A DNA stretch of 32,000 bases from Planctopirus limnophila DSM 3776 (GCF_000092105.1 NC_014148.1:3900001-3932000), one strand, 5' to 3'; positions 4,317 to 23,933 are shown, counted from the first letter of the stretch. Translations and numbers: made by a program. Notes: generated by a model not told the origin, from the letters alone.

Positions 4317-5666
4317 ATGCCCTCTTTTCTGCACGTAGCCGACCTGCATCTCGACAGTCCGAGAAGTGGACTTTCCCGCGATGCCAGTGCCCCGGTTTCT
4401 GAAATTCAGCAGGCTCCTCGCAGAGCACTCGAGCGATTGATTGACGAAGCCTTAAGGCGAAAGGTTTCCGCAGTCGTGATTGCTGGCGATCTTTACGATG
4501 GCGACTGGAAAGACCACCAGACGGGTCTCTTCTTCGTGAGGCAGGCCCAGAAGCTGGCCGACGCCAGGATCCCGGTGGTGATGATCACCGGCAATCACGA
4601 TGCCCAGTCAGTCATCACCCAGCAGCTTCCTTTACCCCCCAACGTGAAAGTTTTAAGTGTCGATGCACCCGAGACATTCCTGCTCGAGGATTGCGGTCTG
4701 GCACTGCATGGGCAAGGTTTCAAGAACCGGGCCGTGCCGCAGAATCTGTCGGCGAACTATCCCGCTAAAATCAACAGCCTCTTGAACATAGGGCTCCTGC
4801 ATACGTCGCTGACAGGCTTCGAAGGGCACGAAGTTTATGCCCCCTGCAGCTTGAGCGATCTGGCCCGGACCGGCTACGAATACTGGGCCTTAGGCCATAT
4901 TCATAAGCGGCAGGAATTTCCTCTGGCCAGTGGCGGGATGGCGGTTTTTCCAGGAAATCTGCAGGGGCGCCATATTCGTGAATGCGGGCCCAAAGGCTGC
5001 GAAATCATCGAGTATCAACCGAATGGAATTCTCCAGCGAGAGTCAATTGTCCTCGATGTCTTTCGTTGGGAACTGCTTTCGATTTCAGTGGACGGATTAT
5101 CTTCCCGAGACGAAATTCTCGCACTGATTGAAGATCACCTGCGCGCTTTTCGCACTTCCGCAGATCCCCAACCACATGCCCTGCGCATCGAACTGATGGG
5201 GGCCACAACTTGTCATGGTCAGCTCATCGACCGCCAGCGGGAACTTCGTGCCGAAATTCAGAGCCTGGTGGTACAGTCAGGAAGTGGCAACTGGTGGCTC
5301 GAAGACCTTTCGCTCCGCACAACTTTTCCAGAGGCATCCATCGATGCCGCTTTGACCAGTGCTGCCTCTCAGGAATTGCTGGCATTGGCCCGGTCGGAAC
5401 TGCAGGCAGCCCATTCCTCTCCCGAACTGCATCGTCTGATGCAAAACCTGACTGAGGATTTGCGGAAGAAGCTCCCTGCGGAAATCTCGTGGAGTGATGT
5501 CCTTGGCCCCACCTCTTCGCACGCTGCAGGCTCTACGACAAACCAGGCATCAACTAATGCTGGAATCGAGTGGAGTCCACTCCTGGAAGAATCTTTAGCA
5601 CTTCTTTCGGCTCGGTTGGAGCAGCCCCAGACACAAGTCTCCACAGGTCGAAAGGGGCGGTCATGA
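4317..5666 (+). CDS. SbcD/Mre11-family metallophosphoesterase (YhaO/SbcF-like DNA exonuclease subunit)
   Basis: Calcineurin-like phosphoesterase motifs in canonical order: VADLHLD, AGDLYDG, TGNHD, GLLH, GHIH. The stop overlaps the start of the next gene (ATGA at 5663-5666). Confidence 0.85.
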   Translation: MPSFLHVADLHLDSPRSGLSRDASAPVSEIQQAPRRALERLIDEALRRKVSAVVIAGDLYDGDWKDHQTGLFFVRQAQKLADARIPVVMITGNHDAQSVITQQLPLPPNVKVLSVDAPETFLLEDCGLALHGQGFKNRAVPQNLSANYPAKINSLLNIGLLHTSLTGFEGHEVYAPCSLSDLARTGYEYWALGHIHKRQEFPLASGGMAVFPGNLQGRHIRECGPKGCEIIEYQPNGILQRESIVLDVFRWELLSISVDGLSSRDEILALIEDHLRAFRTSADPQPHALRIELMGATTCHGQLIDRQRELRAEIQSLVVQSGSGNWWLEDLSLRTTFPEASIDAALTSAASQELLALARSELQAAHSSPELHRLMQNLTEDLRKKLPAEISWSDVLGPTSSHAAGSTTNQASTNAGIEWSPLLEESLALLSARLEQPQTQVSTGRKGRS

Positions 5667-8600
5667 GGATTGCTTCACTCCATCTGGAAAATGTCGGCCC
5701 ATTCCGCAAGACGACCTGGAACCTCGATCCATCCCGAGGTTTTCAATTGTTTATCGGGCCCAATGAGGCGGGCAAAAGTACCGCACTCAGGGCCCTGGCT
5801 GATGCTCTGTACGGCTTTCCTCATACCTTGCCGGATGGTGAGTCCTTTCAACCTTATCGGGATCGTCGTGTTGGTCTCTCTTTGATCAGCGATGATGGCC
5901 AGCAGCTCCGTTTTCTCCGCCGCAAAGCAACCAAACAGGCCTTGCGTGGCCTGGATGACAAAACGGTGGTCGACGAAGCCGAATTGAGCCGGTGGCTGCA
6001 ACAGGTGGATCGTACCCGCTTTGAACAGTTCTTCGGGCTTGACCATGCCCGGCTGGTTCAAGGTGGTAACGAACTGCTCAACTCGAAAGGAGATATCGGG
6101 ACCATCCTCTTCGCAGGTTCTCAGCTACAAGGAGCACCGCAGATTCTTGAAGCGCTGTCCCAGGAGGCAGCCAGCCTGTTCGCCCCTCGAGCACAGAATC
6201 CCCCCATCAACAGCCAGATCCGCCAACATGCCGACCTGATTGCCAAAGTCAATCAGTTGATGGTCAAGCCACAGGCCTGGCGCGACGTTCAAACCGAGTT
6301 TGATCAGGCAAGTACCACCAAAGACAAGCTGCAGTCACAACTCAAAGAGCTGGAAAAACGAGTCAGCCATCTGGCGAGGCTCAATGCCGCCTGTACTCCG
6401 GCCCGGCAACTTCGGCAGATCAGGCAGCAACTGAAAAGCTATGCCGACTTGCCCATGCTCGATGAAGAATTTTTTGAAAAGGTGGAAACTGTTCGCCAGA
6501 AGATCTTCAGTGCTGCTCACGAGCAACGAGTCAAGCTCGACGAATTGCAGCAATTGAAATCCACCCTCGATCAATTGCCTCCTGTCGAATCGATCTGGCT
6601 GGAACACGAAAGCACCATTCGCGAACTCGTCGAAACACGCGGATCAATTCAAAAGGCCCGCAAAGACACTCCCAAAGTTCAAAAAGAGCTGCTTCTGGCA
6701 AAAGCCAGACAACAGACCATCCTCGATCAGTGGAAATGGGCTCCTGCGGATCAATCCGCTTCGATCCCCAGGAGACTCCGTAGAGAGCTCGAAGCACTTC
6801 AGGCCGAGTGGCTGGTACTCTCCGAACGCAAAAAAGCACTGACAGATCGTGCACAGGCCCTGGCCAAAACCACAGCCAGAATTGCCAGCGAACCAGTCGA
6901 TCGTCGAGAGACGTTGCGGCAAGAGCTGGCGAAAACTCAAGCGACGCTGCAAACAGCCGCTTCACTGCTCGAAGCCGATCAGAAGATCAGAACTCTCCGC
7001 ATCAGCCAGACGACACTCGAACGAAACGTCGCCCAGGCCTGGCAGAAGCTTGAACCACAAACGCTCATGAGCCAGTGGGCGGAAGCACACACACTTTCGG
7101 AACAGATCGCACTGCTCTCGTCAACGAACATTCCCCCTCACGACGTGATCGAACAGTTCCGCGAAGAAATCGACACCTGGCACCAACAGGTCCTCTCAGC
7201 GGTGGCCGCTCTCGAAAAAGCACGGCTCGAACAGTCACACGCCATCGAAGAGCGGCAACGACTGCGCACATTGATTCTGCAAGCCACGCCCGAAGATCTG
7301 GCCGCCGCTCGAAGTGAACGTGACCAGCTCTGGGCAAAGTTCCAGCAACAACTGGAAAGTGAACCGCGACCAGACCATCAGCAGCTGATCGAACAGGCTC
7401 AGATCGTGCAGCAATCCATACAGCAGGCCGATCAACTGGCTGATGCACTCTTCAAGCAGGCCACCAATGTCTATCGCGATCAAGAGCTGGCCCTGCGAAC
7501 GGAGCAACTCTCAACTTCCATCCAGCAACTGCAAGAGCGACTCACCACCCAGAAAGATCTCGAAAGCCAGGCAGTTCATCGCTGGGAAAACTTGTGGAGT
7601 TCAACAGGCATCTCGCCCCGATCCCCTCGCGAAATGCTGGTCTGGTCTCGCATGGCACACGAGTTGATCGAACTCGGCGAAAAGCTCGCGGCAATCAACG
7701 ACGAACTCACCGCTCACGATCAACAGTGCGAAATCTTCTGCCACCAGTTCGACACTTCACAGAGCATCGAGTCCGATGCTCCCGAACCTCAACCTTTGCC
7801 CACAATTCATGCACGGCTCAAGATCGACGACCAGAACCTGCTGGAAAGAATTCGTGCTGCGGACCTGCTCGAACTCGACAGGCAACGTCTGAATGATGAT
7901 CAGACAGCCTATCAACACGATCTCGAAGCCTGGCAATCGACCAGCCAGGAGTGGGAACTCCGGTGGAAAGCCGCCATCCTGGCCACTGGCTGGGAAGAGT
8001 CGACCACACCCGATGAACTCGCGGAGTTGTTAGAACAGTTTCAACTTCTTGAGCAGACACAGAACTCAATTCAAAAGCTCGAGGAGAGACTCTCGGGTAT
8101 GGCCGAAGATGAATCGACCTTTCAGGAACAGATCTTCGATTTTGTCCGCACGTCGATTCCCCTTGAAGCCGAGAACCTGATTGCCAGCTTCCCGCCCGTT
8201 GAACTTTCGCAAGCCATCGAGACTCGACAAAATTCCGCCCGCGTGCAGCAGGCTCAATATCAACAGCAGCAGGCCACTATCGAGCGTCTGACTGCCGCTG
8301 TGGAACAACTGGGTGATGCACTGGAACTTGCCCAGGAACAACTGAACCAGGCTCTCAGGCAGGCCAGGCTCAAAGAACCCTCCGAATTGACGGCACTGCG
8401 AGAGAAATGCCGCCTTCGTAGAAAACTGATCGATGATGCCGTTCACCACGAACTCGAACTGGCCCGGCAATGCGGTACCAATTCGGTCGAAGAGCTGATT
8501 CAGCAGGCACTCGAAGTCGACCCAGCGACACTCCCTCCGGAAATTGAATCACTCGGACAGGAAATCAGTTCCTTAAGAGAGCAATTGGGACAAGCGACGG

Positions 8601-9220
8601 CGCGCCTGGAAGCCGCCCGCCTGGCATTGGCAGGCATGAGTGGAGAATCGAAAGCGGCGGAATTGAATGAAGAAGCCAGTGATCTTCGCCGGCTGATTAT
8701 ACAGGATAGCCGGGAGTATCTGCGATTAGTGACTGCCGCCGAGCTCTTGCGATCCGCGATCAAAACCTATCGAGAGCAGCATCAGGGGCCGGTCTTTGCC
8801 CTGGCTGCGTCGATCTTTACACGCATGACGGGCGGTGTGTTTGAAGGTTTGCAGATTGATTCCGAGGATGGTTCTCAAGAACTGCTGGTGCGTTGTCACG
8901 ATGGGCGCACGCTGCGAGTGACTGAACTTTCGACAGGCACCGCCGACCAGCTCTTTCTGGCCATCCGGCTGGCGTGGATTGAAGAGTACCTGCATCAGCA
9001 CCCCCCCTTCCCGCTGGTGCTGGATGATGTGCTGGTGCAGTTCGATGATGAGCGCACGCGTTATGCCCTGGAGGTGCTGGGAGAACTCTCTCGCCGCACT
9101 CAAATCCTGTGCTTCACGCATCATGAACACCTCAAGGAACTGGTCGAACAGACGCTGGAACCCGACCAATACGAGATCCACTCCCTCCAGCGCCTTCGCA
9201 CACCTCCTTTCAAGAGCTGA
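5663..9220 (+). CDS. SMC/Rad50-like AAA ATPase with long coiled coil (YhaN/SbcE-like), 1185 aa
   Basis: I prefer the internal ATG at 5663 (MRIASLHLENVGPF...) because it overlaps the upstream stop as ATGA and sits just before the N-terminal Walker A GPNEAGKST. About 900 aa of heptad-like Q/E/L-rich sequence follows. The C-terminal end has an ABC signature-like LSTGTADQL, Walker B LVLDDVLVQFDD and H-loop FTHH. Confidence 0.85.
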   Translation: MRIASLHLENVGPFRKTTWNLDPSRGFQLFIGPNEAGKSTALRALADALYGFPHTLPDGESFQPYRDRRVGLSLISDDGQQLRFLRRKATKQALRGLDDKTVVDEAELSRWLQQVDRTRFEQFFGLDHARLVQGGNELLNSKGDIGTILFAGSQLQGAPQILEALSQEAASLFAPRAQNPPINSQIRQHADLIAKVNQLMVKPQAWRDVQTEFDQASTTKDKLQSQLKELEKRVSHLARLNAACTPARQLRQIRQQLKSYADLPMLDEEFFEKVETVRQKIFSAAHEQRVKLDELQQLKSTLDQLPPVESIWLEHESTIRELVETRGSIQKARKDTPKVQKELLLAKARQQTILDQWKWAPADQSASIPRRLRRELEALQAEWLVLSERKKALTDRAQALAKTTARIASEPVDRRETLRQELAKTQATLQTAASLLEADQKIRTLRISQTTLERNVAQAWQKLEPQTLMSQWAEAHTLSEQIALLSSTNIPPHDVIEQFREEIDTWHQQVLSAVAALEKARLEQSHAIEERQRLRTLILQATPEDLAAARSERDQLWAKFQQQLESEPRPDHQQLIEQAQIVQQSIQQADQLADALFKQATNVYRDQELALRTEQLSTSIQQLQERLTTQKDLESQAVHRWENLWSSTGISPRSPREMLVWSRMAHELIELGEKLAAINDELTAHDQQCEIFCHQFDTSQSIESDAPEPQPLPTIHARLKIDDQNLLERIRAADLLELDRQRLNDDQTAYQHDLEAWQSTSQEWELRWKAAILATGWEESTTPDELAELLEQFQLLEQTQNSIQKLEERLSGMAEDESTFQEQIFDFVRTSIPLEAENLIASFPPVELSQAIETRQNSARVQQAQYQQQQATIERLTAAVEQLGDALELAQEQLNQALRQARLKEPSELTALREKCRLRRKLIDDAVHHELELARQCGTNSVEELIQQALEVDPATLPPEIESLGQEISSLREQLGQATARLEAARLALAGMSGESKAAELNEEASDLRRLIIQDSREYLRLVTAAELLRSAIKTYREQHQGPVFALAASIFTRMTGGVFEGLQIDSEDGSQELLVRCHDGRTLRVTELSTGTADQLFLAIRLAWIEEYLHQHPPFPLVLDDVLVQFDDERTRYALEVLGELSRRTQILCFTHHEHLKELVEQTLEPDQYEIHSLQRLRTPPFKS

Positions 9221-9254
9221 AAACGCCTCATTCGACTCTGGCAATAGCTTGTGA

Positions 9255-9413
9255 ATAGAGATTCCAATACGTGAACCTGTCGCTCAGTCCGAGTTGGTGG
9301 GTTGCGCAAAGCCTTACCCCACCCTGATTGCCGCTATGAGAAAGCTCCTGACCATCCTCAACGCCATGATTAAAAATCAAACCCCATGGAAAAATCCCGC
9401 ACCAACAGCTTGA
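9255..9413 (+). pseudogene. C-terminal remnant of an IS110-family transposase
   Basis: My own translation of the frame ending at TGA 9411-9413 gives ...LVGCAKPYPTLIAAMRKLLTILNAMIKNQTPWKNPAPTA*. The (A/C)MRKLLTILNAM..(Q/G)TPW tail is the characteristic C-terminus of IS110/IS1111 transposases. An in-frame stop at 9252-9254 leaves only about 50 codons, so it is a fragment. Confidence 0.6.
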
Positions 9414-9559
9414 TTCTCAAGACAGTCGCTACCTGTCTATTCTTACGCGAAGGCGCGAAGATCTCGAAGGAATGGCGACAACGTGTGGGTGCCTCCAGCG
9501 AAAACATGCCCGGTCATTTCATGCTGCAGTTCAGCATGCATTTAGCTGCCTGAATGGAA

Positions 9560-9587
9560 TTGACAGCGAAAACCCACAAGATAACCT
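9560..9587 (+). promoter_or_regulatory. Candidate sigma70-like promoter for the TIR gene
   Basis: TTGACA (9560-9565), 16-nt spacer, TAACCT (9582-9587), about 45 nt upstream of the ATG at 9632. The -10 element matches TATAAT at only 3 of 6 positions, and promoter rules for this lineage are uncertain. Confidence 0.25.
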
Positions 9588-9631
9588 AAACGCTGTTCAC
9601 TTAGATAAGATTTTAACGTTTGGGAAAGGCA

Positions 9632-10603
9632 ATGAATTCAGCCAATCGAAAGAAGGTCGCAGTAATCACTTCATATGTTCAGCAATCATTTTCCGAAAGT
9701 GATTGGTACGCGATTGGGCAGCTTACAGGTCAACTCAACACAATCTCAGGTCACTCGAGGCTCTTGCGAGCGTTGAATTTTGGAGACGACGACTATTCTG
9801 GTTGCGCAGCGGAAGTTCTTGACAGAATCTTCTCCGCAAATGAATCGGCCATTGATGAGGTGATCGACCACTTCGACATCGACCTTTGGTACCAGCAGAA
9901 AAGTCCTGAAAAGTACAACAGACTGTTCTCCGCCGCGGCCTCGTCCTCTGCGGACTTTTGGAAAAGTGGTTTTCTTAAGTTATTCGTTAGCCATCTTTCA
10001 TCCAATAAGACTCGAATGTCTGCACTCAAAGCTGGGCTGGCGACTTGGGGAATTTCAGCCTTCATCGCACACGAAGATATCGAGGCATCTCGTGAATGGA
10101 GGGATGAAGTCGAAGCCGGCTTGGAAACGATGGATGTGCTTGCGGCCGTCGTAGAACCAGGATTCAAGGAATCAGATTGGTGCGTACAAGAGGTCGGTTA
10201 CGCCCTAGGCCGCAAAATCGATGTAATTCCACTACGAGCAGGATTAGACCCTTTTGGTTTCTTTGGAAAGTTTCAAGGAATTCAGATCAAAGGGCGACTT
10301 CCCGAGCAGGTGGCATGCGATATTACACAAGTTCTTCTCAAGAAACCTCAATATAGAGAGAGGCTCATCCAAAGCATATCAATAGCCTTTTCAACACTGG
10401 CTTCCGAGAAAAAGATCGAAAATATTAACACGCTAGACGAATGGTCGATTCTTACCGACATTCAGTTGAAAACTGTGGTCGAGCAAGCCGCGATGTCAGG
10501 GGCTGAGAAGCAAGCGGCGAAGAATCTGATCGCTCGCATTGGAGCATTCAAAGCAGCAGAAGTCGAAGTCAACCTGCCTGACGACGATGACATTCCGTTT
10601 TGA
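9632..10603 (+). CDS. TIR-domain protein (ThsB-like candidate) with unassigned N- and C-terminal regions
   Basis: Central region LFVSHLSSNKTRMSALKAGLATWGISAFIAHEDIEASREWRDEVEAGLETMDVLAAVVEPGFKESDWCVQEVGYALGRKIDVIPL fits the bacterial TIR pattern (F-[IV]-S-[HY]...; F.D.dI..g..W...I; then S.WC..E). The candidate catalytic Glu is in WCVQE (codon 10190-10192). I prefer the ATG at 9632, preceded by GGAAAGG, over the TTG at 9620. Confidence 0.75.
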   Translation: MNSANRKKVAVITSYVQQSFSESDWYAIGQLTGQLNTISGHSRLLRALNFGDDDYSGCAAEVLDRIFSANESAIDEVIDHFDIDLWYQQKSPEKYNRLFSAAASSSADFWKSGFLKLFVSHLSSNKTRMSALKAGLATWGISAFIAHEDIEASREWRDEVEAGLETMDVLAAVVEPGFKESDWCVQEVGYALGRKIDVIPLRAGLDPFGFFGKFQGIQIKGRLPEQVACDITQVLLKKPQYRERLIQSISIAFSTLASEKKIENINTLDEWSILTDIQLKTVVEQAAMSGAEKQAAKNLIARIGAFKAAEVEVNLPDDDDIPF

Positions 10604-10754
10604 CAGCGAAGCGAATCACGTTGAGTGGAATACGATAGTTTCAATTGGCGGCGTATCGCTGGTCACTGGAATTAAATAGCGGACGGCATCTAAGTTTTTT
10701 GCGATCCATCCAAATGAGAATTCTCTTCTAAGAAATGCAAAGGTATTTGAACAT

Positions 10755-12080
10755 ATGGCGGAGCGCAGACATCGTTTTGAAGGCTTGGTGCCAGAAATGC
10801 TCATACAGAGTATCCGCGATCATCGGTGCGTGCTTTTCGCTGGCGCCGGGATGTCAGCCCAAGCTCAAACTCAAGACGGCACACGCCTCCCGACTTGGAG
10901 TGCTCTGCTCGAGCGAATGCTGAACTGGTGTATCGATCATCGAGTTCCACTTCGGGCTGATCCAGCAGAGTTCAAAGAGGTACTGAAGCGTGGGAGGTTG
11001 CTCGTTGTTGCTCAAGAACTTCAGCAGAGTCTCGGTAGCCAGCTAAACACTTGCTTGTCAGCAATTCTCCATACCGGCAAGACAACACCAAGTGAAGCAC
11101 ATCGTTTGGTATCGAGAATTGATTGGGTTGCTGCGCTTTCGTCTAACTATGATGGACTGATTGAAGGGGCCTATGCACTTGAAACTGGTGGCATCGTCCC
11201 ACCAGTTTTCTCTCCTGCCGGAATTGGTCAGGCTCTCGATTGCCTTCGAAGTAACCGCTTCTTCGTCTTGAAAGTGCATGGCGATGTCAATCTCCCCGGC
11301 TCAATAGTGTTAAGCAACCGAGACTATTCAAGACTTCTATATTTGAGCCCCGGCTACCGATCTTTTCTTGAATCTATCTTTTCAAACTATACCGTTCTAT
11401 TTGTAGGATTTGGCGGGAATGATCCAGATCTTGATGGAATAGTGGATAGACTATCCACAATCTACGAACATAGTATCGGACAGCACTTCATATTGATTTC
11501 TGAGGATGAATTTACTGCGCTCGAACGTAGGCGTCTACTTGAAGACAAGCGCCTAGACTGCATTACGTATCGACGGGATGCCTCACATTCACAAGTCGTC
11601 GAATTTCTTTGGGCGCTGTCACAGCGGTTAACTTCAAAGGCAGTCGTTAACACGCCGTTTGCTAAAGACGAGAACAAACAACGCGCGTTCATATCTGGGA
11701 GTTCTCGACAAATAGGCATGCTTCGCGAAGTGGCCGAGATAGCAAGGCAGGTAGGCTTTGATGTGTGGTACTCCGAGACAGAGATCGCTGTGGGCGATCG
11801 TTTGGTTGATGTGATCGCCAAGTGTATCGACGAGGCGGACTGTTTCATTGTTATTCTGTCAAAAGAGTCAGGGGAGTCTTCTTGGGTTCACTTTGAAATC
11901 GGCAGGGCCTTTGGAGCGCACAAAAAGGTGTTTCCAATCCGCATTGGTGATGCTCCTGTACCCTCAGACCTGATGAACGTTGTCTACCTGCAAGTCAGCG
12001 AGCCACCATTTAACGCTGAAGATAAAGAAAAAATCATGATGAACCTGGCGAGATTTCTTAAGCCCACGAAATCTAGCTAG
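10755..12080 (+). CDS. SIR2-family (SIR2_2-like) NADase domain fused to a C-terminal TIR domain
   Basis: N-terminal part: CVLFAGAGMS (Rossmann glycine loop), LPTWSALL, SSNYDGLIE (Asn131, codon 11145-11147), VLKVHGDV (His175, codon 11277-11279) and LFVGFGGNDPDLD, which are the defining motifs of ThsA/DSR-type prokaryotic SIR2 domains. C-terminal aa ~310-415: RAFISGSS...GFDVWYSETEIAVGDRLVDVI...ADCFIVILSKESGESSWVHFEIG, a TIR pattern with the conserved Glu381 (codon 11895-11897). Confidence 0.8.
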   Translation: MAERRHRFEGLVPEMLIQSIRDHRCVLFAGAGMSAQAQTQDGTRLPTWSALLERMLNWCIDHRVPLRADPAEFKEVLKRGRLLVVAQELQQSLGSQLNTCLSAILHTGKTTPSEAHRLVSRIDWVAALSSNYDGLIEGAYALETGGIVPPVFSPAGIGQALDCLRSNRFFVLKVHGDVNLPGSIVLSNRDYSRLLYLSPGYRSFLESIFSNYTVLFVGFGGNDPDLDGIVDRLSTIYEHSIGQHFILISEDEFTALERRRLLEDKRLDCITYRRDASHSQVVEFLWALSQRLTSKAVVNTPFAKDENKQRAFISGSSRQIGMLREVAEIARQVGFDVWYSETEIAVGDRLVDVIAKCIDEADCFIVILSKESGESSWVHFEIGRAFGAHKKVFPIRIGDAPVPSDLMNVVYLQVSEPPFNAEDKEKIMMNLARFLKPTKSS

Positions 12081-14629: not shown

Positions 14630-14801
14630 ATCAGAAGGATTCACGATTGCTGTGGATTGGCGTTAAGACGAATTCTTGCGCTGACCGTGGGTGAAGAATT
14701 CCTCCCACTTGAGGCGTCACTGGTCATTTGGCTGAAAAATCGTCAACGTAAAGCAGAGAAGTTTCTCATGTTTTACGCTGTCCATCTGCCAATGGTTGAC
14801 C

Positions 14802-16727
14802 ATGAGTCGTCCTGCTGAATCGCCTACTCCCGAAGAAATCTCGCCGGTCTTTCGACTGAGTGACAAGACCACGCTCTTCCCGGTCATTCACGAGAGCGGT
14901 GATTTCTCCGTCGCTATTCGCCGGTTTTTACTACACCACAGCTTCGATTGCCTCGCTGTGCCGCTGCCACCTTCCTTTGCCGAAGCTGTCGAGCAGGCCA
15001 TTCTGCAATTGCCTTCGGTTTCGATTGTCCTGCAGCGGGAAACCGCCATTCCGACTGTGAGATCGTGGACACCACCTGCTGAGACGCGGGATGACGATGA
15101 ACAGCCGGAATTTTTTACCCGTGCCGCCAGCTATGTGCCGGTTGAACCTTGCCAACCAGTCATTGCCGCTCTTCGTGCAGCCATGGAAGAACGGATTCCC
15201 CGGGCATTCATCGACCTCGAAACCGATCACTTTGAATGTCATACCGCCGTCTATCCCGATCCTTACTCACTCAAGCATACGACTCCTGAAGCGTTTGCTG
15301 CAGCCATTCTCCCTGCGATTCCTCCACCACCGGGAGAACAAGCCTACGCCCGCATTCATACCATGGCTCATCGCCTGCACGAACTCGAACAGCGGTACAA
15401 CTCGATTCTCTGTATCTGCTCGCTGACAGATTGGCCATGGATTCGCAAAGCGTACCAGGATCGCCTCCCCCAAGTGACAGACGACCAGGTGGAATCGGTC
15501 GAAACGTTTGCAGTCACTCCGGAAACACTACATTTCATGATGGGTGAGCTGCCCTATATCACCGGTCTTTATGAGCGGGCACGAGCCGAGTTGGAATCCG
15601 ATGAGAACCTGAGCATCGACGGCGTCAAAACCATGCTGCTCGCGACACGCGATGAATATCGCGAAGACCTGGGTTCCCGCGCACGCAAGATTACCCCTAA
15701 GCTTCTCAAGACGTACTTTCAGTATGTCCGTAATCTCACACTGATTCAGAAACATCTCACTCCTTCGCTCTATACGCTGATCTCAGCGGCTCAGCAGATT
15801 GCTGGAGATCTGTTTGCCGTGCAACTGGCCGATGTGGCTCAGCAGTACGGCTATCCACCTCTGGACGGTGTTCCCCCTTTGCGCATGGGCATCAATAAAG
15901 CCGCCCTGCCGGATGGAACTTTCTATGGCATGAAAACGCGTCTGCCTGGTCAGACCCGGGTCTGGTGTACCCTAAAGCTCACACCCAAGCCACCTCAACT
16001 CCAGCAGCAGGATTGGCAGTCGCGATGGAATCCATTTCGCCAGTGCAGCTGGCCACCAGAAGATCTGGCGATCGAGAAATTCCGCACGCATATCAAGGAT
16101 TCTGCAATCGCGTTAATGGGTGCTGATCTGGCCCGCAGTGAAAAGTTCACAACCAGTTTGAAGGATGGTCTCGATATGCGCGAGACGCTTCGCAACTGGC
16201 ATTCGGGAGAGTTGTATGTTCGTATTAATCCGCCCGCCCGCGGGAATCTCGATTGCGTGATTATGCTGTTTGATTCCCCCGCCGACCCGCGCACTTATCC
16301 CTGGCGGGTGACGTGGCATGCCGAGCATCACGATGAATCGACGCTTTCACTCTTTGCGACCGATTACCGCGCCAGTATGCAAGGCCCGGGGATTGGCATG
16401 GCGACTTATGGCGGTGCCATGTTTTTATTTCCGCCCCGGCCGATTCCCGATATCTGGCGGTCGAGGCATTTCGATCATGCCGACACTCTTGAAGAGCGGT
16501 TGATTATGGCGGCTTGTCATTACTCGCGGGAAAAGCATATCGCCATGCTCAGCCCCCTTCCCCCCGGGTTGGCATGGAAGAAGATTGCCCAGCGCTACGG
16601 CAAAAAACTGATCCACCTGCCCCTTTCGAGATTCAGCCAGGAGACAATCGAAAAGCTCCGCGTCTTCCATGTACTTAATGGAACCAGCGTTCGCAGCTAC
16701 GCCGCTCATTTTATCCGCAAAGGCTGA
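14802..16727 (+). CDS. Large conserved hypothetical protein, 641 aa; N-terminus is TraB/GumN- or DUF5682-like by pattern only
   Basis: Long uninterrupted ORF with protein-like composition. The N-terminal TLFPVIHESGDFSVAIRRFLLHHSFDCLAVPLPPSF and later IPRAFIDLE resemble the H-containing strand, helix and 'PD-vvavE' layout of TraB/DUF5682 families. No catalytic assignment is possible. I prefer the ATG at 14802 over the TTG at 14796. Confidence 0.7.
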   Translation: MSRPAESPTPEEISPVFRLSDKTTLFPVIHESGDFSVAIRRFLLHHSFDCLAVPLPPSFAEAVEQAILQLPSVSIVLQRETAIPTVRSWTPPAETRDDDEQPEFFTRAASYVPVEPCQPVIAALRAAMEERIPRAFIDLETDHFECHTAVYPDPYSLKHTTPEAFAAAILPAIPPPPGEQAYARIHTMAHRLHELEQRYNSILCICSLTDWPWIRKAYQDRLPQVTDDQVESVETFAVTPETLHFMMGELPYITGLYERARAELESDENLSIDGVKTMLLATRDEYREDLGSRARKITPKLLKTYFQYVRNLTLIQKHLTPSLYTLISAAQQIAGDLFAVQLADVAQQYGYPPLDGVPPLRMGINKAALPDGTFYGMKTRLPGQTRVWCTLKLTPKPPQLQQQDWQSRWNPFRQCSWPPEDLAIEKFRTHIKDSAIALMGADLARSEKFTTSLKDGLDMRETLRNWHSGELYVRINPPARGNLDCVIMLFDSPADPRTYPWRVTWHAEHHDESTLSLFATDYRASMQGPGIGMATYGGAMFLFPPRPIPDIWRSRHFDHADTLEERLIMAACHYSREKHIAMLSPLPPGLAWKKIAQRYGKKLIHLPLSRFSQETIEKLRVFHVLNGTSVRSYAAHFIRKG

Positions 16728-17066: not shown

Positions 17067-18566
17067 TTATCGATAGATCTGGCAGATCCTAAGCAGACAC
17101 AACAGAGGGTCGTCCGCTGAAAGTTTATCTATCCGTTCTATAACCTCTGAATCAATTGGAACACAATCCTTGAGAACATTAAGAACCTGGAAATACTCTA
17201 ACTGTTGGTACAGGCAGAATCTCAGTAATCGAAAACGAAGTGACTGATAATAAAAATGCCACGATTTCAGTCCAGAACGAAGCACTGGGTCACGAATGAG
17301 ATGGCGACGGATCTCATCACCATCCAGAGCAATGTAATGACCACACTTACTTAACCACAGTTGTTCAATTTTGACTTTTATCGCCTGAAACCAAATAGTC
17401 CCCTTATCCCGCAATATTTCCAGACATAGAAGCGTATCCTGCGGATTAATCAATAACTGTAATAGAAGTTCGTCAACCATTTCATTCTGGAGCGTCTCAT
17501 TCTCGTATTCCATTTCAAAAGCGACTTTAAGGCACATTCGGCATAGAGATCGAACGGATTGTGATGCCTTCACGATAGATGGGTTCGTGAAACTCAGTTG
17601 CTCAGAGCTTATAAGAAGACAATCTGCACGATCCAAAAGATGATCACCATAAAACCCACTAACAGTAAACTCACTCAGAGCACTTTTACAGTGTTGAATA
17701 AGCTCGTCTTTCTGAACTGGTTCATAAACAATCAACATCTCCAATAAACAGACAATGATAGCTAACCAATAAGAACAGTCATCCACAAGCATTTCATCAA
17801 GTCGATGAAACTCTTGAATAACTATTTCGTCTTGATCCCTCTTAAAATACAACTGCCATCGCACTCGCAGAAGCTGTGTTTGAAGTGTACGAAACGCAGG
17901 ATCCAATATCAGCTTCCAAAAATCTCTTCCTGTGGTTAATTCGGGGTGATTCGAACACTCCCTCGTCAACAGCCGTTGAGACTGTAAGCTCAAGCCATAC
18001 TTCAATGCATAACTCAACAGCAGATTCAGAGATGTCGTCGATGAATCTAAATGCGGCTGAAGCGTCAGCAACCAGTATCTTTGCAGCATCTCCCGCTCAA
18101 TATGAGGATGAGTCAGACTTCTTCGCGAAAGAACTTCGTAAGCAAGATCGACTTTCCCGGATTTCGCCAATTGCCACGGATCACTATCAAGACATGACAG
18201 ATATGAATGATCTGCGTCCTTGACAGAAGCTTCCATACCTCTAAAAGCATCTTTTGAATCACACTCAAGGATAACTTCATCTTTAAATGGACGAATCATA
18301 TCAGGAGTCTGCATTTGCTCGCCGAGAAGAAGAGCAAAATCGTCTGATCGTTTTTTCGCATCAGCATAGGGAAGAAGTACCTCATACGCCTTCCGAATCT
18401 TCTGAAAGGCCTCAGCGTCGATTTCAGGCCGAAACCGCTTAATCAGCTTTGAATAGACCCGCTTTAGATCACCACTTGAAAATGATCGTCCCATCCCCAT
18501 TAACTCCCAGGGATTTTCTGGCCACTTCGAGAAATCATCAGGGAGCGAGTGAGCATCGGTACCCAT
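17067..18566 (-). CDS. J-domain-like protein, module 2 (HPD replaced by RPE), DjlB/DjlC-like size
   Basis: N-terminal NPWELMGMGRSFSSGDLKRVYSKLIKRFRPEIDAEAFQKIRKAYEVL aligns to DnaJ helices I-III (DYYEILGV...IRKAYKRLAMKYHPD...FKEIKEAYEVL), with RPE (18423-18431) at the HPD position. About 430 aa of helical C-terminal region is homologous to the paralog at 19767-21272 (EREMLQRYWLLTL, DPWQLAK and others). I prefer the ATG at 18566 over the GTG at 18578. Confidence 0.8.
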   Translation of the reverse strand: MGTDAHSLPDDFSKWPENPWELMGMGRSFSSGDLKRVYSKLIKRFRPEIDAEAFQKIRKAYEVLLPYADAKKRSDDFALLLGEQMQTPDMIRPFKDEVILECDSKDAFRGMEASVKDADHSYLSCLDSDPWQLAKSGKVDLAYEVLSRRSLTHPHIEREMLQRYWLLTLQPHLDSSTTSLNLLLSYALKYGLSLQSQRLLTRECSNHPELTTGRDFWKLILDPAFRTLQTQLLRVRWQLYFKRDQDEIVIQEFHRLDEMLVDDCSYWLAIIVCLLEMLIVYEPVQKDELIQHCKSALSEFTVSGFYGDHLLDRADCLLISSEQLSFTNPSIVKASQSVRSLCRMCLKVAFEMEYENETLQNEMVDELLLQLLINPQDTLLCLEILRDKGTIWFQAIKVKIEQLWLSKCGHYIALDGDEIRRHLIRDPVLRSGLKSWHFYYQSLRFRLLRFCLYQQLEYFQVLNVLKDCVPIDSEVIERIDKLSADDPLLCLLRICQIYR

Positions 18567-18665
18567 TATTACCTGCACGCCAGAGGCACCATCACATTAC
18601 GAAAACACAAACTAACTGCACCATACTGACACTAAGACTTGAACCACTATCAATCTGGGAAAGGA

Positions 18666-19472
18666 TCAACAAAGCCAGATAAACAGTACCGAACCTGCCA
18701 ACAAAATGATCGCAACAAAAACAACACAAGTCTTACTTACTACAAACTCCTTTTTGCGATGAGTCCAGGTGCCCCCCCATTCCGGATCAATGACATCAGG
18801 AAAATATTTGCGATGCCAATGGCTTGGATTGTCCGAATGTAATAACTCGCCAAACCAGTCTCCACCAAGCGATGCGAGCTTCGGATCAATCCTTCTCAAC
18901 TTTTGCGACTCAGCCTGCCACTCCATCGGCTTATCAAAGAATACATCGATTTTCTTGCGATAGAAGTCCCCCTTCTCGGTGGGCCACGTGACATACGAAT
19001 TCAGGATACATTTGCCCAAATACTTGAGGTGCACTGATCCGAGATGATTGATTTCAGAGTTGATATCGAGCCCGCGTTCAAGATGTTCCAGCAGTCGCTT
19101 CAAGCGTAGGTGTGGCTGACACAAAGGCCTCAACCGCTCATACTCCCGTTTACGATCCTTCGGAGGGTAACCTAAATAGCGAGAAAAGAAACTGCGAAGT
19201 TCCACCTCAACCTGGGCTTCATTGAGCTGCTCCCAGTGCGATCGATCAGTCGGCGTCCATAATGTCTCCGGCTTTCCCGCCAGATACTTAACGGCATGAT
19301 CTAATGCCTCATTACTTGTAAATCCAGATTTCTCCAACGCGCTTAAAGCAACGGCTTGTATATCATCCACTTCCGCTCCTGTTTCCAGGCCCAGAACAGA
19401 CCTCCCCCAGGCGAGATGGTGCTCATCGATCACAAAATTGTCTCTGGTTTCAGGTAGAGGATCGTTATCCAT
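18666..19472 (-). CDS. Tail-anchored hypothetical protein, module 2 (paralog of 21404-22210)
   Basis: 268 aa. A soluble, mostly helical body is followed by a single C-terminal TM helix (CVVFVAIILLAGSVLFIWLC) at the extreme end. Roughly half the residues are identical to the module-1 copy (AVKYLAG.PETLW, EYERL.PLC.PH.RLKRLL.HLERGL, TWPTEKG.FYR.KI, DP.LASLGG.WF.ELL). Confidence 0.75.
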   Translation of the reverse strand: MDNDPLPETRDNFVIDEHHLAWGRSVLGLETGAEVDDIQAVALSALEKSGFTSNEALDHAVKYLAGKPETLWTPTDRSHWEQLNEAQVEVELRSFFSRYLGYPPKDRKREYERLRPLCQPHLRLKRLLEHLERGLDINSEINHLGSVHLKYLGKCILNSYVTWPTEKGDFYRKKIDVFFDKPMEWQAESQKLRRIDPKLASLGGDWFGELLHSDNPSHWHRKYFPDVIDPEWGGTWTHRKKEFVVSKTCVVFVAIILLAGSVLFIWLC

Positions 19473-19766
19473 TCTGATGAACTTTCATGAATCGATAATT
19501 GAGATTGCTTTCAGCAAAGAACACTCCGACATGATTCCTTATACTATTACCTCAACTTCCCTCATCGCGCTGGTAAGTTTGTTGTCCACTCAACAAGGTT
19601 CTAGATTGCATTTTTTATAAAACTTACTGATCGTTGGGACTCTTTAACACTTTTCTACTTCACTCCCCGTAGTGTACCCTGCATTCAAGCTACATTACAA
19701 TCCGATAAATAGCGGCATATTCCCCATCATATAAGCTTGAGAAGACGATCATCGACAGGGCTCTTT

Positions 19767-21272
19767 CTAAATACCGATCTGACATGCCTGAACCAGGCTG
19801 CGCAGGGGTTTATCTTTGAGCAACATGTCGGCCCGGGGTGTTGTCGCTTTATTGGAGATTTCGATCATCTGCAGTACAGGGACCAGTTTTGTCATGTCAA
19901 TACAGTGCACGAGACAGAATCGCAGGACGCGTCCTCGCAATGAGTTGTAGCTGAATTGCGATGCGGACATCAGACCCATAAGAACCGTATCGCGCTGGGC
20001 CTCGCTTTTCAGTCCCTCAAATTCAAGGGCTTCGTACTGTGAATATTCTTCATACCAGAGTTGATAGATCGCTTGACTGAGTATCTGCAGCCAGGGTGCA
20101 CCTTTTTTCAACAGCTCATCCAGGCACATCAGTGAACTCTGCGGGTGATTCACAATCTGATCGATCAGTGGCAACAAAATCTCCCGCCTGCGCGGGCTTT
20201 CGATATGTTCCAACTCAGTAGCGACCTCCAGACAGCGACGATAAAGAAAACGGATCGATTTAGAGGTTCTGACGAGTGATGAAGGCGAGCGAAAGAAGTC
20301 ATGGTAATTCGATATCAGATAGTCTGCCCGATCAAACAATTCCTGTTGATGAACCCCTTGTGATTCCAATTCTTTCAGAAGGGTCTGGCAGCGGTCAAAC
20401 ATCGGCTGACGCAAACGGGGATGATAGACCACCACCAGTTCCAGCAGTTGGATCACAATCGTTAACCATTGAGCAGGATCGTCGAAATACTGCGATTCCA
20501 GTTCTTCAAACTCCTGCAGCACAACTTCATCGCCGTCGTCTTTGAGAAGCCCTTTCCACCTCAGACGTAACAACGAGAGACGGAAACTCTGGTTGTAGCG
20601 GCCTGAGATCAGCTTCCAGATCTGGTTTTTCATCGCCAGTTCCGGCCGGTTCGACACTTCAGCCAAGAGCAATCGCTCCACCTCATCACTCAATCGATAA
20701 GTGATGGCGAAATTCAGAAGTTGATCATAGGCCGTTGTCGAACGATCCAGCTCGGGATGAAGTGTCAGCAACCAGTAGCGCTGCAGCATTTCCCGCTCAA
20801 AATGAGGTCTCGTAAAACGTCTTCTGGCAAGTTCGGCATACGCCTTCTCATATTCACCCGCCTTCGCCAGTTGCCACGGATCGACATCTCGGTGAGCCTG
20901 CCGCCGATGGTGGGATCTCTGGGATGATGATTCATGTCCCGCGTCGTCATGTTCAGGAGTCTCGGCCGAATGATCTTCTGCCGAAGTGCCATCATCCTCG
21001 ACGGATTTCTCATCCGTTGTTTGAAGATGATTCCATATCAGATGGGCCACGGCGGCAGTGTCCGCATCGGCATCGGCGTAATGCTGCAAGGTTTCATACG
21101 CCTGCCTGACTTTTTGAAATGCTTCCGGTGCCGATTCGGGGCGATATCGTTTAATTAACCGCGAGTACGCCAGCTTTAACTCTTTTTTGGTAAATGATCT
21201 TTCCATCCCCAGAATCCGCCAGGGATCTTGAGGCCATTGGGAAACATCGTCCGGTAAAGAGTCCATATTCAT
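19767..21272 (-). CDS. J-domain-like protein, module 1 (HPD replaced by RPE), DjlB/DjlC-like size
   Basis: N-terminal DPWRILGMERSFTKKELKLAYSRLIKRYRPESAPEAFQKVRQAYETL has a J-domain helix II, loop and helix III pattern, with RPE (21135-21143; I verified the codons cgc ccc gaa on the minus strand). An acidic, His-rich linker is followed by a helical domain homologous to 17067-18566. Confidence 0.8.
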   Translation of the reverse strand: MNMDSLPDDVSQWPQDPWRILGMERSFTKKELKLAYSRLIKRYRPESAPEAFQKVRQAYETLQHYADADADTAAVAHLIWNHLQTTDEKSVEDDGTSAEDHSAETPEHDDAGHESSSQRSHHRRQAHRDVDPWQLAKAGEYEKAYAELARRRFTRPHFEREMLQRYWLLTLHPELDRSTTAYDQLLNFAITYRLSDEVERLLLAEVSNRPELAMKNQIWKLISGRYNQSFRLSLLRLRWKGLLKDDGDEVVLQEFEELESQYFDDPAQWLTIVIQLLELVVVYHPRLRQPMFDRCQTLLKELESQGVHQQELFDRADYLISNYHDFFRSPSSLVRTSKSIRFLYRRCLEVATELEHIESPRRREILLPLIDQIVNHPQSSLMCLDELLKKGAPWLQILSQAIYQLWYEEYSQYEALEFEGLKSEAQRDTVLMGLMSASQFSYNSLRGRVLRFCLVHCIDMTKLVPVLQMIEISNKATTPRADMLLKDKPLRSLVQACQIGI

Positions 21273-21403
21273 CAGTGATTTCAGTTGAATTGTTGTGAAT
21301 CGTCTTTACACGATCTGCCATAACTATATAGATCGCCGATCAATCTTCGCAGATCATTGTTTATCGAATTGTTATCATTCGACAGCACTCCTTGATGCGT
21401 CAG

Positions 21404-22210
21404 CTAGCGATTGATCAATACGGAAATCAGACTGATAACAAACAGGATCGCGGTGATCAGGCAGCCCCATTGATCAAAAAACGAAGCTTTTTGGGGTGTG
21501 ACCCACTGTAGCCCGGTATCTTTCTCTGCCAGATCTGGAAAGTGCATGCGGTACCAGTAGTGAGGATCCTGGATGTTGAGTAACTCCTGAAACCAGTTGC
21601 CTCCCAGAGAAGCCAGCCTGGGGTCTTGTCTTTTCAACATCTGCGCAGCAGCATGCCATTCGTTCGCTCGATCAAAGAGAACTACGATTTTCTCTCGATA
21701 GAAATGTCCCTTTTCGGTAGGCCAGGTGGTATAGGATCGGAGAATACAATCGCCCAGATACCGCTGATACTCTGTTCCCACATGATCGACATTGAGGCTG
21801 AGATTCAGCCCACGCTCAAGATGGTTCAGCAGACGTTTCAGTCGCGGATGAGGTTCGCACAAGGGCTTGAGCCTCTCGTACTCATGCTTTCTCAATTGCG
21901 GCGGAAGGCTGTAGTAGCGGCTGTAAAATTTACGAAGGACCTGCTCGGTTTCTTTTTCCGTGAGCTGCTGGGAATGTGCGTGGTCTGCGGCTGTCCATAA
22001 TGTCTCCGGCCCGCCCGCCAGATATTTCACGGCTCGGTCAAAATCGGCATGCCCTTCAAAATCGGCGGTTTCCAGAGTTTTTAAGGCCCGGGTCGCGCAG
22101 ACGGTGGCATCGAGGGAGGGTTCCAGATCGAGGTAATTTCTTGCCCAGGCTCGATGATGCTCTTCCACCTGCAGGCTCTTACTCGTCGGATGGAGAGGTT
22201 CCGTAGTCAC
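21404..22210 (-). CDS. Tail-anchored hypothetical protein, module 1 (paralog of 18666-19472)
   Basis: The track ORF runs to 22312, but that N-terminal extension lies inside the Hsp70 gene. The in-frame GTG at 22210 gives 269 aa and aligns residue-for-residue with the 268-aa paralog (His18-His19 in both). C-terminal TM helix CLITAILFVISLISVLI. An alternative GTG start lies at 22168. Confidence 0.72.
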   Translation of the reverse strand: MTTEPLHPTSKSLQVEEHHRAWARNYLDLEPSLDATVCATRALKTLETADFEGHADFDRAVKYLAGGPETLWTAADHAHSQQLTEKETEQVLRKFYSRYYSLPPQLRKHEYERLKPLCEPHPRLKRLLNHLERGLNLSLNVDHVGTEYQRYLGDCILRSYTTWPTEKGHFYREKIVVLFDRANEWHAAAQMLKRQDPRLASLGGNWFQELLNIQDPHYWYRMHFPDLAEKDTGLQWVTPQKASFFDQWGCLITAILFVISLISVLINR

Positions 22211-23933
22211 CTTGTTCGCCTTCAAAGGAATCGAATGCCTTGAGAAATGCTCCCAGTTCTTCAGCAAAGAGTTTGATCTGTGCCTGATCCTGAGATTCCA
22301 GTACCTCTTCAAACCCCGTGATCAGTTGATCCAGGCGGTTTCGCTCACGATGGGGAAGTTCCATATAGAGTCGCTCGGCCCATTTAAGCAGTAGCCGGTT
22401 CTCTTCTTCATCGCGAGGATGAGCCTTTAAAGCCTGCATCTTATCGAGAGCCGTTTTCATCTGACTTTCGCTCAGATTTTTCATATGGCGGGTAAAGACC
22501 TGAGTGGCCCGCTTTTGTGTCTTCACAATCACCGCTTCGGCTTCGAGAATGCCATTGAGGTCATAAGTGAATCGAATATCAATTTCCTGTCCAGGTGGGC
22601 CGGGGGGAATACCAGTGACTTCGAAAGAACCCAATAGCTGGTTGTCTTTGACCAATCGGGATTCACCCTGATAGACCGAAACATTCACTTTGGATTGATT
22701 GGCCACACGGGTGGCCACGCGTTCGACCCGGCTGACAGGAATGGTTGTATTGCGATTGATGATCGGCAGGTAATAACCATCCCGATCTTCGCCACCAATT
22801 TCACGACAGATCTCCACGCCCATGGTAAAGGGAGCGACATCGGTCACGACAATTTCGGAAAGGCTCTCATGCCGATCCAGAATCCCGGCATTGACGGCGG
22901 CACCTAAAGCGACCACTTCATCGGGATTGATGGTGCAGCGTGTGGGTCTTTCGAACAGCTCTTCAATACGTTTAATAAGACTCGGCATGCGAGACGCACC
23001 GCCTGCCAGAATGACTTCGTCGATCTCCTGCCGTTTCAGCCCGGCATCGCCTAGCGCCCTGCGGATCGGGCTTAAAATGCGATCCAGCGTCGGTTTCGTC
23101 CAGAGGTCGAACATTTCCCGTGTGATCGCATAACGCGGTGCATCGGGCTCGATTTCTCCCTGACTGTTCGGCAGGCGAACTTCTGTTGACGCTTCATTTG
23201 TCAACCGGCGTTTGGCCTGTTCGCATTCCCGACGTAAGCGAGAAACTCGCAGTGGCTCCTGCATTTCGGTGTGTTCGAACTTCATCCCGGCCTGATTGAG
23301 AATCTGGGAGACACAGGCGTCGGTGAAATCTTCTCCACCCAAAAAGATCTCGCCGGCTGAAGCACGAATTTCAAGCACACCTTCAAACATTTCGACAATT
23401 GAAACGTCAAACGTGCCGCCACCTAAGTCGATAATCACGGCTGTCTTTTGAGAATCGGCTTCATGGAGACCGTACGCTATGGCTGCAGCCGTGGGCTCGT
23501 TGACAATCCGTTCAACCTTGAGACCTGCCATCTGACCGGCAGCAATCGTCGCTCGCCTCTGCTCTTCATTAAAGTAGGCAGGGACGGTAATCACAGCCGA
23601 CGTTACGGCTTCGCCCAGATAATGCTCGGCATCAGCGACCAGCGATCGAAGCACACAACTGGACAGATCGATCGCCGACATCTTGCGGCCAGCCAGAGTC
23701 ACGCTCCAGTCACTTCCCATGTAGCGTTTGAAAACGCTCGCGCAAAGATCCGGATGTGAGACCTGATACTCTTTGGCCGTCATTCCGACCAGCAGATGCT
23801 CGCCTTCAACCCCCACAACAGAAGGAGTCAGTTTCTGGCCAAGTGAATTCGGGATGAGCTTCGGGCCATCCGCCTCCATAATGGCAATGAGTGAATTGGT
23901 CGTTCCCAGATCAATGCCAACAATGCGACTCAT
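22179..23933 (-). CDS. hscC: Hsp70-family chaperone, HscC-type (584 aa, short C-terminal lid, no EEVD)
   Basis: GIDLGTTNSLIA (phosphate-1), FKRYMGS (catalytic Lys region), NEPTAAAIAYGLH, IDLGGGTFDVS (phosphate-2), FLGGEDFT, ILAGGASRMP (adenosine motif), SBD VTDVAPFTMGVEI, ERNTTIPVSRVE and VYQGE. Length and motif variants match my recollection of E. coli HscC rather than DnaK or HscA. The gene symbol is by family resemblance only. Confidence 0.9.
   Translation of the reverse strand: MSRIVGIDLGTTNSLIAIMEADGPKLIPNSLGQKLTPSVVGVEGEHLLVGMTAKEYQVSHPDLCASVFKRYMGSDWSVTLAGRKMSAIDLSSCVLRSLVADAEHYLGEAVTSAVITVPAYFNEEQRRATIAAGQMAGLKVERIVNEPTAAAIAYGLHEADSQKTAVIIDLGGGTFDVSIVEMFEGVLEIRASAGEIFLGGEDFTDACVSQILNQAGMKFEHTEMQEPLRVSRLRRECEQAKRRLTNEASTEVRLPNSQGEIEPDAPRYAITREMFDLWTKPTLDRILSPIRRALGDAGLKRQEIDEVILAGGASRMPSLIKRIEELFERPTRCTINPDEVVALGAAVNAGILDRHESLSEIVVTDVAPFTMGVEICREIGGEDRDGYYLPIINRNTTIPVSRVERVATRVANQSKVNVSVYQGESRLVKDNQLLGSFEVTGIPPGPPGQEIDIRFTYDLNGILEAEAVIVKTQKRATQVFTRHMKNLSESQMKTALDKMQALKAHPRDEEENRLLLKWAERLYMELPHRERNRLDQLITGFEEVLESQDQAQIKLFAEELGAFLKAFDSFEGEQGDYGTSPSDE

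Follow-up and report, generated by a model that had tools for sequence, protein, structure and literature searches.

A conserved J-domain family with a basic residue in place of the HPD histidine, encoded beside an HscC-type Hsp70 in Planctopirus limnophila and other Planctomycetota

The window analysed here is a stretch of 32,000 nucleotides from Planctopirus limnophila DSM 3776 (NC_014148.1:3900001-3932000). Five co-directional genes fill positions 17067-23933 of its minus strand in the order Hsp70, M1, J1, M2 and J2, where J1 and J2 encode J-domain proteins and M1 and M2 encode tail-anchored membrane proteins. Textbooks treat the His-Pro-Asp tripeptide (HPD) as invariant in J-domains. It is not present in J1 or J2, both of which carry Arg-Pro-Glu (RPE). 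The genes and their relevant parts are as follows.

22179..23933, minus strand: HscC-type Hsp70, 584 amino acids (aa), first gene of the operon (Pfam HSP70, E 4.6e-141)
21404..22210, minus strand: M1, tail-anchored all-alpha membrane protein, 268 aa from GTG 22210 (mechanical open reading frame [ORF] start, TTG 22312)
19767..21272, minus strand: J1, J-domain protein, 501 aa, whose ortholog is named "J domain-containing protein" at NCBI; it opens with an LPDDxxxWPxDP motif, continues with the J-domain and a disordered linker, and ends in an alpha-solenoid
21021..21227, minus strand: J-domain of J1, approximately residues 16-84, from the AlphaFold2 model and the profile alignment to solved J-domains
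21143-21135, minus strand: RPE codons of J1 (R44, P45, E46; cgc-ccc-gaa) at the HPD position, context KRYRPES
18666..19472, minus strand: M2, second tail-anchored copy, 268 aa, with a 93%-identical ortholog in the metagenome-assembled genome (MAG) GCA_027483405.1, where the gene order is the same
17067..18566, minus strand: J2, second J-domain protein, 499 aa from ATG 18566 (mechanical ORF start, GTG 18578)
18431-18423, minus strand: RPE codons of J2 (cgg-cct-gaa) at the HPD position, context KRFRPEI

Two of the starts differ from the mechanical ones. M1 most likely begins at GTG 22210 (MTTEP...), as judged from the MTTE(T/P) N-termini of its homologs and from orthologs of 268 aa, and this start produces an overlap of 32 nt with the stop of the Hsp70 gene. 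J2 most likely begins at ATG 18566, since its 86%-identical ortholog begins with MGTDAH. The two J proteins share 41% identity over their full length and the two M proteins 47%. The GC content is 50.4% in J1, 42.9% in J2 and 48% in M2, with the rest of the operon at 50-53%. The NCBI names of the orthologs are "molecular chaperone HscC" for the Hsp70, "hypothetical protein" for M and "J domain-containing protein" for J.

A reading made from the sequence alone (the sequence-only reading) had placed RPE exactly in the loop between helices II and III of both J-domains, and both the codons and this position were confirmed. J1 scores 30.7 bits against the Pfam family DnaJ (PF00226), above the cutoff of 27.8. 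When searched with phmmer against all PDB chains, J-domains were the sole matches, and KRYRPE was aligned on the KKYHPD of DNAJA3 (E 1.7e-5). A profile made from 30 N-termini of the family matched 55 solved J-domains at E<=1e-3 (top E 2.6e-10), including the DnaJ chain of the DnaK-DnaJ complex (5NRO_B, E 1.6e-9), where "rrfkPeha" falls on "lkyHPDkn". The alignment of the family with DjlB and DjlC by hhalign places KPE on HPE in an uninterrupted alignment of 52 columns (E 2.4e-6). In the AlphaFold2 model of J1, which was built on 120 homologs (pLDDT, the model's confidence score, 86.4), helix I spans residues 17-21, helix II residues 29-42 and helix III residues 49-84, and R44-P45-E46 lie in the loop 43-48. 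It is thus confirmed that J1 and J2 each have a real N-terminal J-domain in which R-P-E lies exactly on H-P-D. The explanation that the alignment was out of register and that another tripeptide occupies the loop is ruled out by these four independent alignments and the structural model, all of which keep R-P-E on H-P-D; nothing was found in its favour and its probability is practically nil.

The extent of the family was revealed only with a hidden Markov model (HMM). A word-indexed protein search with J1 returned just five relatives (triads KPE, KPE, DPA), whereas the full HMM scan over 1.84 billion representative proteins, at a threshold of E<=1e-30, retrieved at least 516 clusters (50% identity) in Planctomycetota. 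A metagenome scan for further loci yielded 5, and no plasmid-borne relatives of J1 were found. Among 154 family members, the triad is KPE in 132, RPE in eight, KPD in seven and RPD in three, with DPA, DPE, TPE and NPE found once each; histidine is found in none of the 154. The RPE of Planctopirus thus appears to be the local form of a family-wide [K/R]-P-[E/D] triad with the consensus KPE. As to whether RPE itself is family-wide, the basic-Pro-acidic pattern is general, whereas RPE as such is found in only eight of the 154.

Conservation was examined in an alignment of 120 members, which are about 22% identical overall. Invariant are P45, W13, Y36 (DnaJ Y25) and R56 (DnaJ K51), and at least 90% conservation is found for K44, E46, F52 (DnaJ F47), L39 and A58, whereas R38 (R27) and R53 (K48) are consensus residues. 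When these are compared with the DnaK-contacting residues of the J-domain in 5NRO, as listed in PMC8215388, the conservation of the equivalent positions indicates that the Hsp70-contacting face of the J-domain has been kept. Position 44 is near-invariant as K/R, and chance is no explanation for RPE given such near-invariance at about 22% overall identity. The triad is among the most constrained positions of the family, although fixed in a different chemical class, a basic one.

The ratios of non-synonymous to synonymous substitution (dN/dS) are in agreement with this. Compared with Planctopirus hydrillae for the first module and with MAG GCA_027483405.1 for the second, they are 0.04 for the Hsp70, 0.21 for M1, 0.13 for J1, 0.24 for M2 and 0.36 for J2, values which indicate that all five genes are under purifying selection; for the triad and the other residues of J that contact the Hsp70, this selection is strong. 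The sequence-only reading had argued for selection rather than decay from the agreement of two paralogs that are moderately similar and differ in composition. Both properties hold (41% identity; GC 50.4% versus 42.9%) and selection is upheld by the dN/dS of J1 and J2 and by the family-wide conservation, but the agreement of the paralogs adds no independent support. The closest relative of J1 is J2 and vice versa; RPE was therefore inherited from their common ancestor and does not represent two independent observations. What does count as evidence for selection is the conservation across the whole family; the 86%-identical ortholog of J2 carries RPE too.

A motif of the form L-P-D-D-x-x-x-W-P-x-D-P precedes the J-domain and is near-invariant in the family (residues 5-17 of J1, window ~21222-21260). 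Its W13 is invariant, and L6, P7 and P14 are at least 90% conserved. The motif is absent from DjlB/DjlC and from the proteobacterial HscC partners. One RPE-bearing member from a goat gut MAG of Thermoguttaceae (L014) has 555 aa with an N-terminal extension, and neither an M nor an Hsp70 gene is found within ~8 kb of its J gene.

The J genes are accompanied by a specific type of Hsp70. The Hsp70 of the window is 41.6% identical to HscC of Escherichia coli (E 1.6e-131) versus 35% to DnaK. The features which define HscC, as listed in PMC8215388, are a set of insertions and deletions relative to DnaK and a length of 550-580 aa. In the alignment, DnaK residues ~77-100 in lobe I of the nucleotide-binding domain (NBD) and residues 208-211 are deleted, an insertion is found in loop L1,2 of the beta-part of the substrate-binding domain (SBD-beta), 11 residues are deleted in helix B of the lid and the C-terminal tail is short. 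With all the diagnostic indels present in a protein of 584 aa, the partner can be classified as an HscC-type Hsp70. Its catalytic residues K70, E171, D194, T199 and D201 are intact, and the J-contact residues R167 and P419 are retained. The Arg of VERIVNEPTAA had been equated with DnaK R167 from the sequence alone, and the alignment bears this out.

A change in the Hsp70 that would match the loss of His was sought in the same alignments. Q378 of DnaK is N in the window, but as a match to Arg this was rejected because Q is kept in two planctomycete loci with RPE (L026) and RPD (L017); N378 thus appears to be specific to Planctopirus. There are just six aligned positions at which DnaK and E. coli HscC share a residue and eight planctomycete partners uniformly differ, and L391V is among them. 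Of 120 planctomycete HscC-type proteins, 118 have the linker x-x-V-V-T-D; I-L-T-D is found in all three His-type partners whose adjacent HscC was read (E. coli, Bacillus mycoides, Erwinia). The position corresponding to DnaK 391 is L in the RPD-type pairs of Rahnella and Duffyella, and M in those of Ralstonia and Rhizobium.

The order Hsp70-M-J is found in nine further loci from Pirellulales, Gemmataceae, Planctomycetaceae and unclassified Planctomycetota. The J gene adjoins an hscC-type Hsp70 gene in the window and in at least nine related planctomycete loci, an M homolog separates the Hsp70 gene from the J gene in all planctomycete loci examined, and in several of them the stop of M overlaps the start of J by 4 nt. 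Hsp70-M-J is a conserved three-gene operon across Planctomycetota, to which the window adds a second, diverged M-J module. Two M-J modules are found in the window and, in the same order, in MAG GCA_027483405.1. In P. hydrillae there is a single M-J module, and J1 is followed directly by a convergent gene of 646 aa. The second module may have arisen from an old tandem duplication followed by compositional drift, or may have been lost in P. hydrillae. Among the genes of the window operon and of the related operons examined, no J-protein with HPD was found.

M belongs to no Pfam or NCBIfam family according to scans of M1 and M2. The model of M1 (pLDDT 81) is all-alpha with a C-terminal transmembrane (TM) helix at residues 244-267, and Foldseek retrieved no structural match for it in the PDB. 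A TM helix is found in 22 of 23 M homologs. A relation of M to DUF1266 was considered and rejected, with an hhalign probability of 0.3% for the M family against YbeR/YbeU and no Pfam hit. On the other hand, the hydropathy profiles of J1, J2 and 152 family members show no TM helix at the C-terminus. Beyond the J-domain, J1 is modelled as a disordered linker (residues 87-130) and an all-alpha solenoid (132-500), for which Foldseek retrieved from the PDB only generic solenoids of the TPR/ARM type without significance (E>=0.03). The C-terminal part of J showed no BLASTP match to DjlB/DjlC past the J-domain, and hhalign aligned the J-domain only, with a DjlB/DjlC profile of two sequences.

The closest known counterpart is the HscC system of E. 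coli, where DjlB and DjlC carry HPE (PMC10410713), both are tail-anchored and DjlC is the sole J-protein that stimulates HscC (PMC8215388). The locus is arranged as ybeR(DUF1266)-djlB, ybeU(DUF1266)-djlC and hscC. The window shares with it the diagnostic indels of an Hsp70 that is over 40% identical, J-domains whose II-III loop is shorter by six residues than that of DnaJ, a Glu as the acidic third residue, the pattern xPExxPxxFxxhRxAYE, and two tandem modules of an accessory gene and a J-protein of ~480-500 aa beside a single Hsp70. Membrane anchoring is also found somewhere in both systems. The analogy drawn earlier with DjlB/DjlC-HscC is thus well founded, the Hsp70 being of the HscC type and the J-domain of the DjlB/DjlC subtype, whereas the Glu cannot count as new because HPE is already the known state of DjlB/DjlC (PMC10410713). 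There are also differences. The first residue of the triad is Arg in the window and Lys in the family consensus instead of His, no homology to the C-terminal domain of DjlB/DjlC was detected in that of J, and it is the accessory M, not the J-protein, that carries the tail anchor. This M is no relative of the DUF1266 proteins YbeR and YbeU, there is no pairing with DUF1266, and the order is Hsp70-M-J with all genes co-directional.

J-domains next to HscC outside Planctomycetota were read from loci drawn from a plasmid and chromid collection. HPE is found in B. mycoides, Erwinia persicina, Vibrio tritonius and E. coli; RPD in Ralstonia pseudosolanacearum GMI1000 (megaplasmid), Rahnella victoriana (two genes), Rhizobium sp. 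CB3171 and Duffyella gerundensis; DPQ in Eleftheria terrae; and DSD in Clostridium baratii. The replacement of His by Arg is widespread among HscC partners, with the first position of the triad generally free and Pro and the acidic residue mostly kept; in several phyla, His at this position seems dispensable among these partners. The proteobacterial RPD-type resembles the proteins of the window in having Arg for His, in the short-loop subtype of its J-domain and in directly adjoining an hscC-type gene. It differs from them in having Asp and not Glu as third residue, a C-terminal TM helix on the J-protein itself, no M homolog or DUF1266 within 6 kb, and L or M instead of V in the linker of its Hsp70. 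A C-terminal TM helix on J is a property of DjlB/DjlC and of most other HscC partners that were read, and of none of the planctomycete J-proteins analysed.

In this small sample, a DUF1266 neighbor was found only with the HPE type (E. coli, B. mycoides, Erwinia and Vibrio) and was missing beside the RPD and DPQ types (Ralstonia, Rahnella, Rhizobium, Duffyella and Eleftheria), a distribution which suggests distinct sub-architectures within the HscC system. In the plasmid of R. victoriana, two RPD J genes follow hscC, one of 185 aa as annotated (under the name "molecular chaperone DnaJ") and one of 446 aa with a tail anchor; this is another case of a duplicated J partner for a single HscC.

The RPD-type proteins are annotated as "J domain-containing protein" or "molecular chaperone DnaJ", and no description of them as HscC-adjacent J-proteins was found in the literature searched. 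Similarly, no paper on J-domains with KPE or RPD was found in a search that did not cover the bacterial census of J-domain proteins (JDPs) by Barriot et al. 2020; HPE is the sole variant on record in the literature searched. The possibility had been raised that the variant is common among DjlB/DjlC homologs and therefore a known trait. The first half is right, as Arg or Lys is common among HscC partners, whereas for the second half no paper recording Arg or Lys was found.

In the wider group of J-domains with an altered triad, that is, Pam16/Tim16 (DKE/DKS), DNAJB13 (HPL) and the type IV JDPs of Plasmodium, the J fold is retained as it is in the window. The family described here differs from all of them in that its triad is strongly conserved and keeps Pro and the acidic residue. 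It also differs from them in sharing its operon with an Hsp70 dedicated to it, and for a heterodimer of the Pam16/Pam18 type no canonical HPD partner was found in the window operon or the related loci. In comparison with the DnaK-DnaJ complex (5NRO), the hairpin of helix II, loop and helix III and the equivalents of Y25, R27, L28, P34, F47, K48, K51, A53 and Y54 are kept in J, and E206 and E217 are conserved in the Hsp70 together with R167 and P419. On the contrary, H33 is replaced by R/K and D35 by E, K26 is lost and the loop is shortened, while in the Hsp70 D208-D211 are deleted and D477, D481 and L391 are changed to T, N and V, respectively.

The interpretation that we favour, with some confidence though far from certainty, is that these proteins are working, membrane-recruited co-chaperones of HscC in which Lys or Arg replaces His. 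A dedicated partner of the HscC-type Hsp70 is to be expected, and the operon encodes no further J-protein. Its J-domain would dock on the interface of NBD, linker and SBD-beta of the ATP-bound Hsp70 and trigger ATP hydrolysis. The side chain of Lys or Arg would donate a hydrogen bond to the linker backbone, as His33 does in DnaJ-DnaK, and R167 and Q/N378 would still be contacted by Glu. M would be bound by the soluble alpha-solenoid of J, so that the chaperone would act on the cytoplasmic side of the membrane; in E. coli, the tail anchors on DjlB and DjlC themselves would do this recruiting job. The two M-J modules may represent two targeting adaptors for one Hsp70, as DjlB and DjlC would be in E. 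coli.

Several points weigh against this interpretation. Replacement of His (e.g., H33Q) abolishes stimulation in every tested system, and HPE is considered the only tolerated replacement in a 2026 review (PMC13254874). The first residue of the triad varies among HscC partners (H, R, K, D), and the triad could just as well do no catalytic coupling in this system. J2 scores only 23.8 bits against PF00226 (E 4.8e-5), below the cutoff, and in the model of J1 helix III is one long helix with no separate helix IV predicted. The interaction of M with J is inferred from gene order and the location of the anchor alone. Finally, a sub-branch with DPA or DPE (L006 and L020; also P0005 and P0009) has lost other signature residues of the J-domain (AH for AY, AAR for AYE), and its loci keep the upstream M gene with no Hsp70 in the flanks (~6 kb on each side in L020; ~0.7 kb upstream in L006).

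The alternatives draw on some of the same observations. If the J-domains were degenerating relics and RPE a neutral remnant, the low GC of J2, its sub-threshold Pfam score, its dN/dS, which is the highest of the five, and the fact that the M2-J2 module is not present in P. hydrillae would find a ready explanation. Yet none of the five genes is disrupted, each has a dN/dS far lower than 1, and the triad is conserved across hundreds of clusters as well as in the J2 ortholog; decay is ruled out on these grounds and its probability is very small. A more serious alternative is a J-like tether of the type IV kind, which would bind through the surface of helices II and III and localise or hold the Hsp70, or inhibit it like Pam16, without stimulating it. 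The failure of His replacements elsewhere and the variable first residue would fit such a tether, as would the persistence of the DPA/DPE sub-branch with no Hsp70 gene beside it. In addition, HscC-type Hsp70s are without the D208-D211 loop and D477/D481, which are J contacts in DnaK, and thus the coupling of Hsp70 and J may differ from that in DnaK. However, a pure tether would not need K/R and E at 90% or more and an invariant P in proteins so divergent. There is also no canonical J-protein in the operon to be regulated, the Hsp70 retains its full catalytic set and R167, and generic J-proteins do not serve E. coli HscC. We regard the tether as unlikely.

A further proposal refines the co-chaperone interpretation and is not exclusive of it, namely that the change of His to Lys/Arg was compensated in the Hsp70 by the linker change L391V. 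In DnaK-DnaJ it is the backbone carbonyl of L391 in the linker that accepts the hydrogen bond of His33 (PMC8215388), and the V-V-T-D linkers of the planctomycete proteins, as opposed to I-L-T-D in the three His-type partners, together with the place of L391V among the six uniformly different positions, point in the same direction. The RPD-type pairs undercut it in its strict form, since L is kept in Rahnella and Duffyella and M is found in Ralstonia and Rhizobium. Moreover, the contact of H33 is to a backbone atom, so a change of the side chain at 391 may be irrelevant. The His group comprises few sequences and the type of triad is confounded with phylogeny, so that the covariation of linker and triad is weak, non-strict and suggestive at most. 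Compensation of this kind is possible, though we hold it to be doubtful.

Outside the operon, the ORF of 643 aa at 14796-16727 on the plus strand is convergent on it and has no match in Pfam, NCBIfam or PADLOC; its syntenic counterparts have 646 aa in P. hydrillae and 641 aa in the MAG. A cluster resembling a defence island occupies positions 4317-12080 of the plus strand, and the GC content of the window falls to 0.48-0.50 at 9-12 kb. Its genes are as follows.

4317-5666, plus strand: calcineurin-like phosphoesterase
5570-9220, plus strand: AAA_27/SMC-type ATPase, 1216 aa
9620-10603, plus strand: AbiJ_NTD5-TIR protein
10755-12080, plus strand: SIR2-TIR protein resembling Thoeris ThsA (PADLOC ThsA, E 1.3e-20)

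An anti-phage role of the chaperone operon itself was considered and rejected, as PADLOC returned no match for J or M. For the Hsp70 it returned a weak partial match to the candidate model PDC-M61B (E 3.6e-8).

Taken together, the finding is a large, previously undescribed branch of HscC co-chaperones without His, and a planctomycete-specific Hsp70-M-J module in which M would be a previously undescribed tail-anchored subunit of the three-gene chaperone system. According to the 2026 review, it "remains enigmatic" whether deviations other than HPE are accidents or selected (PMC13254874). The family offers a counter-example to the view that HPE alone is tolerated, with hundreds of clusters of operon-linked Hsp70 partners whose basic residue appears to be under purifying selection, and parallel Arg variants are found next to hscC in Proteobacteria. 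Large surveys which discard J-domains without HPD overlook an entire branch of the HscC system. We put forward, tentatively and at somewhat less than even weight, that in HscC-type systems the J-domain histidine is not needed for coupling, lineages with Lys, Arg and even Asp having kept Pro and the acidic residue. If this is true, the HPD rule would be a property of DnaK-type Hsp70s and not of signalling between J-domains and Hsp70s as such, and the planctomycete Hsp70-M-J operon would provide a natural, conserved system for the role of the first residue of the triad.

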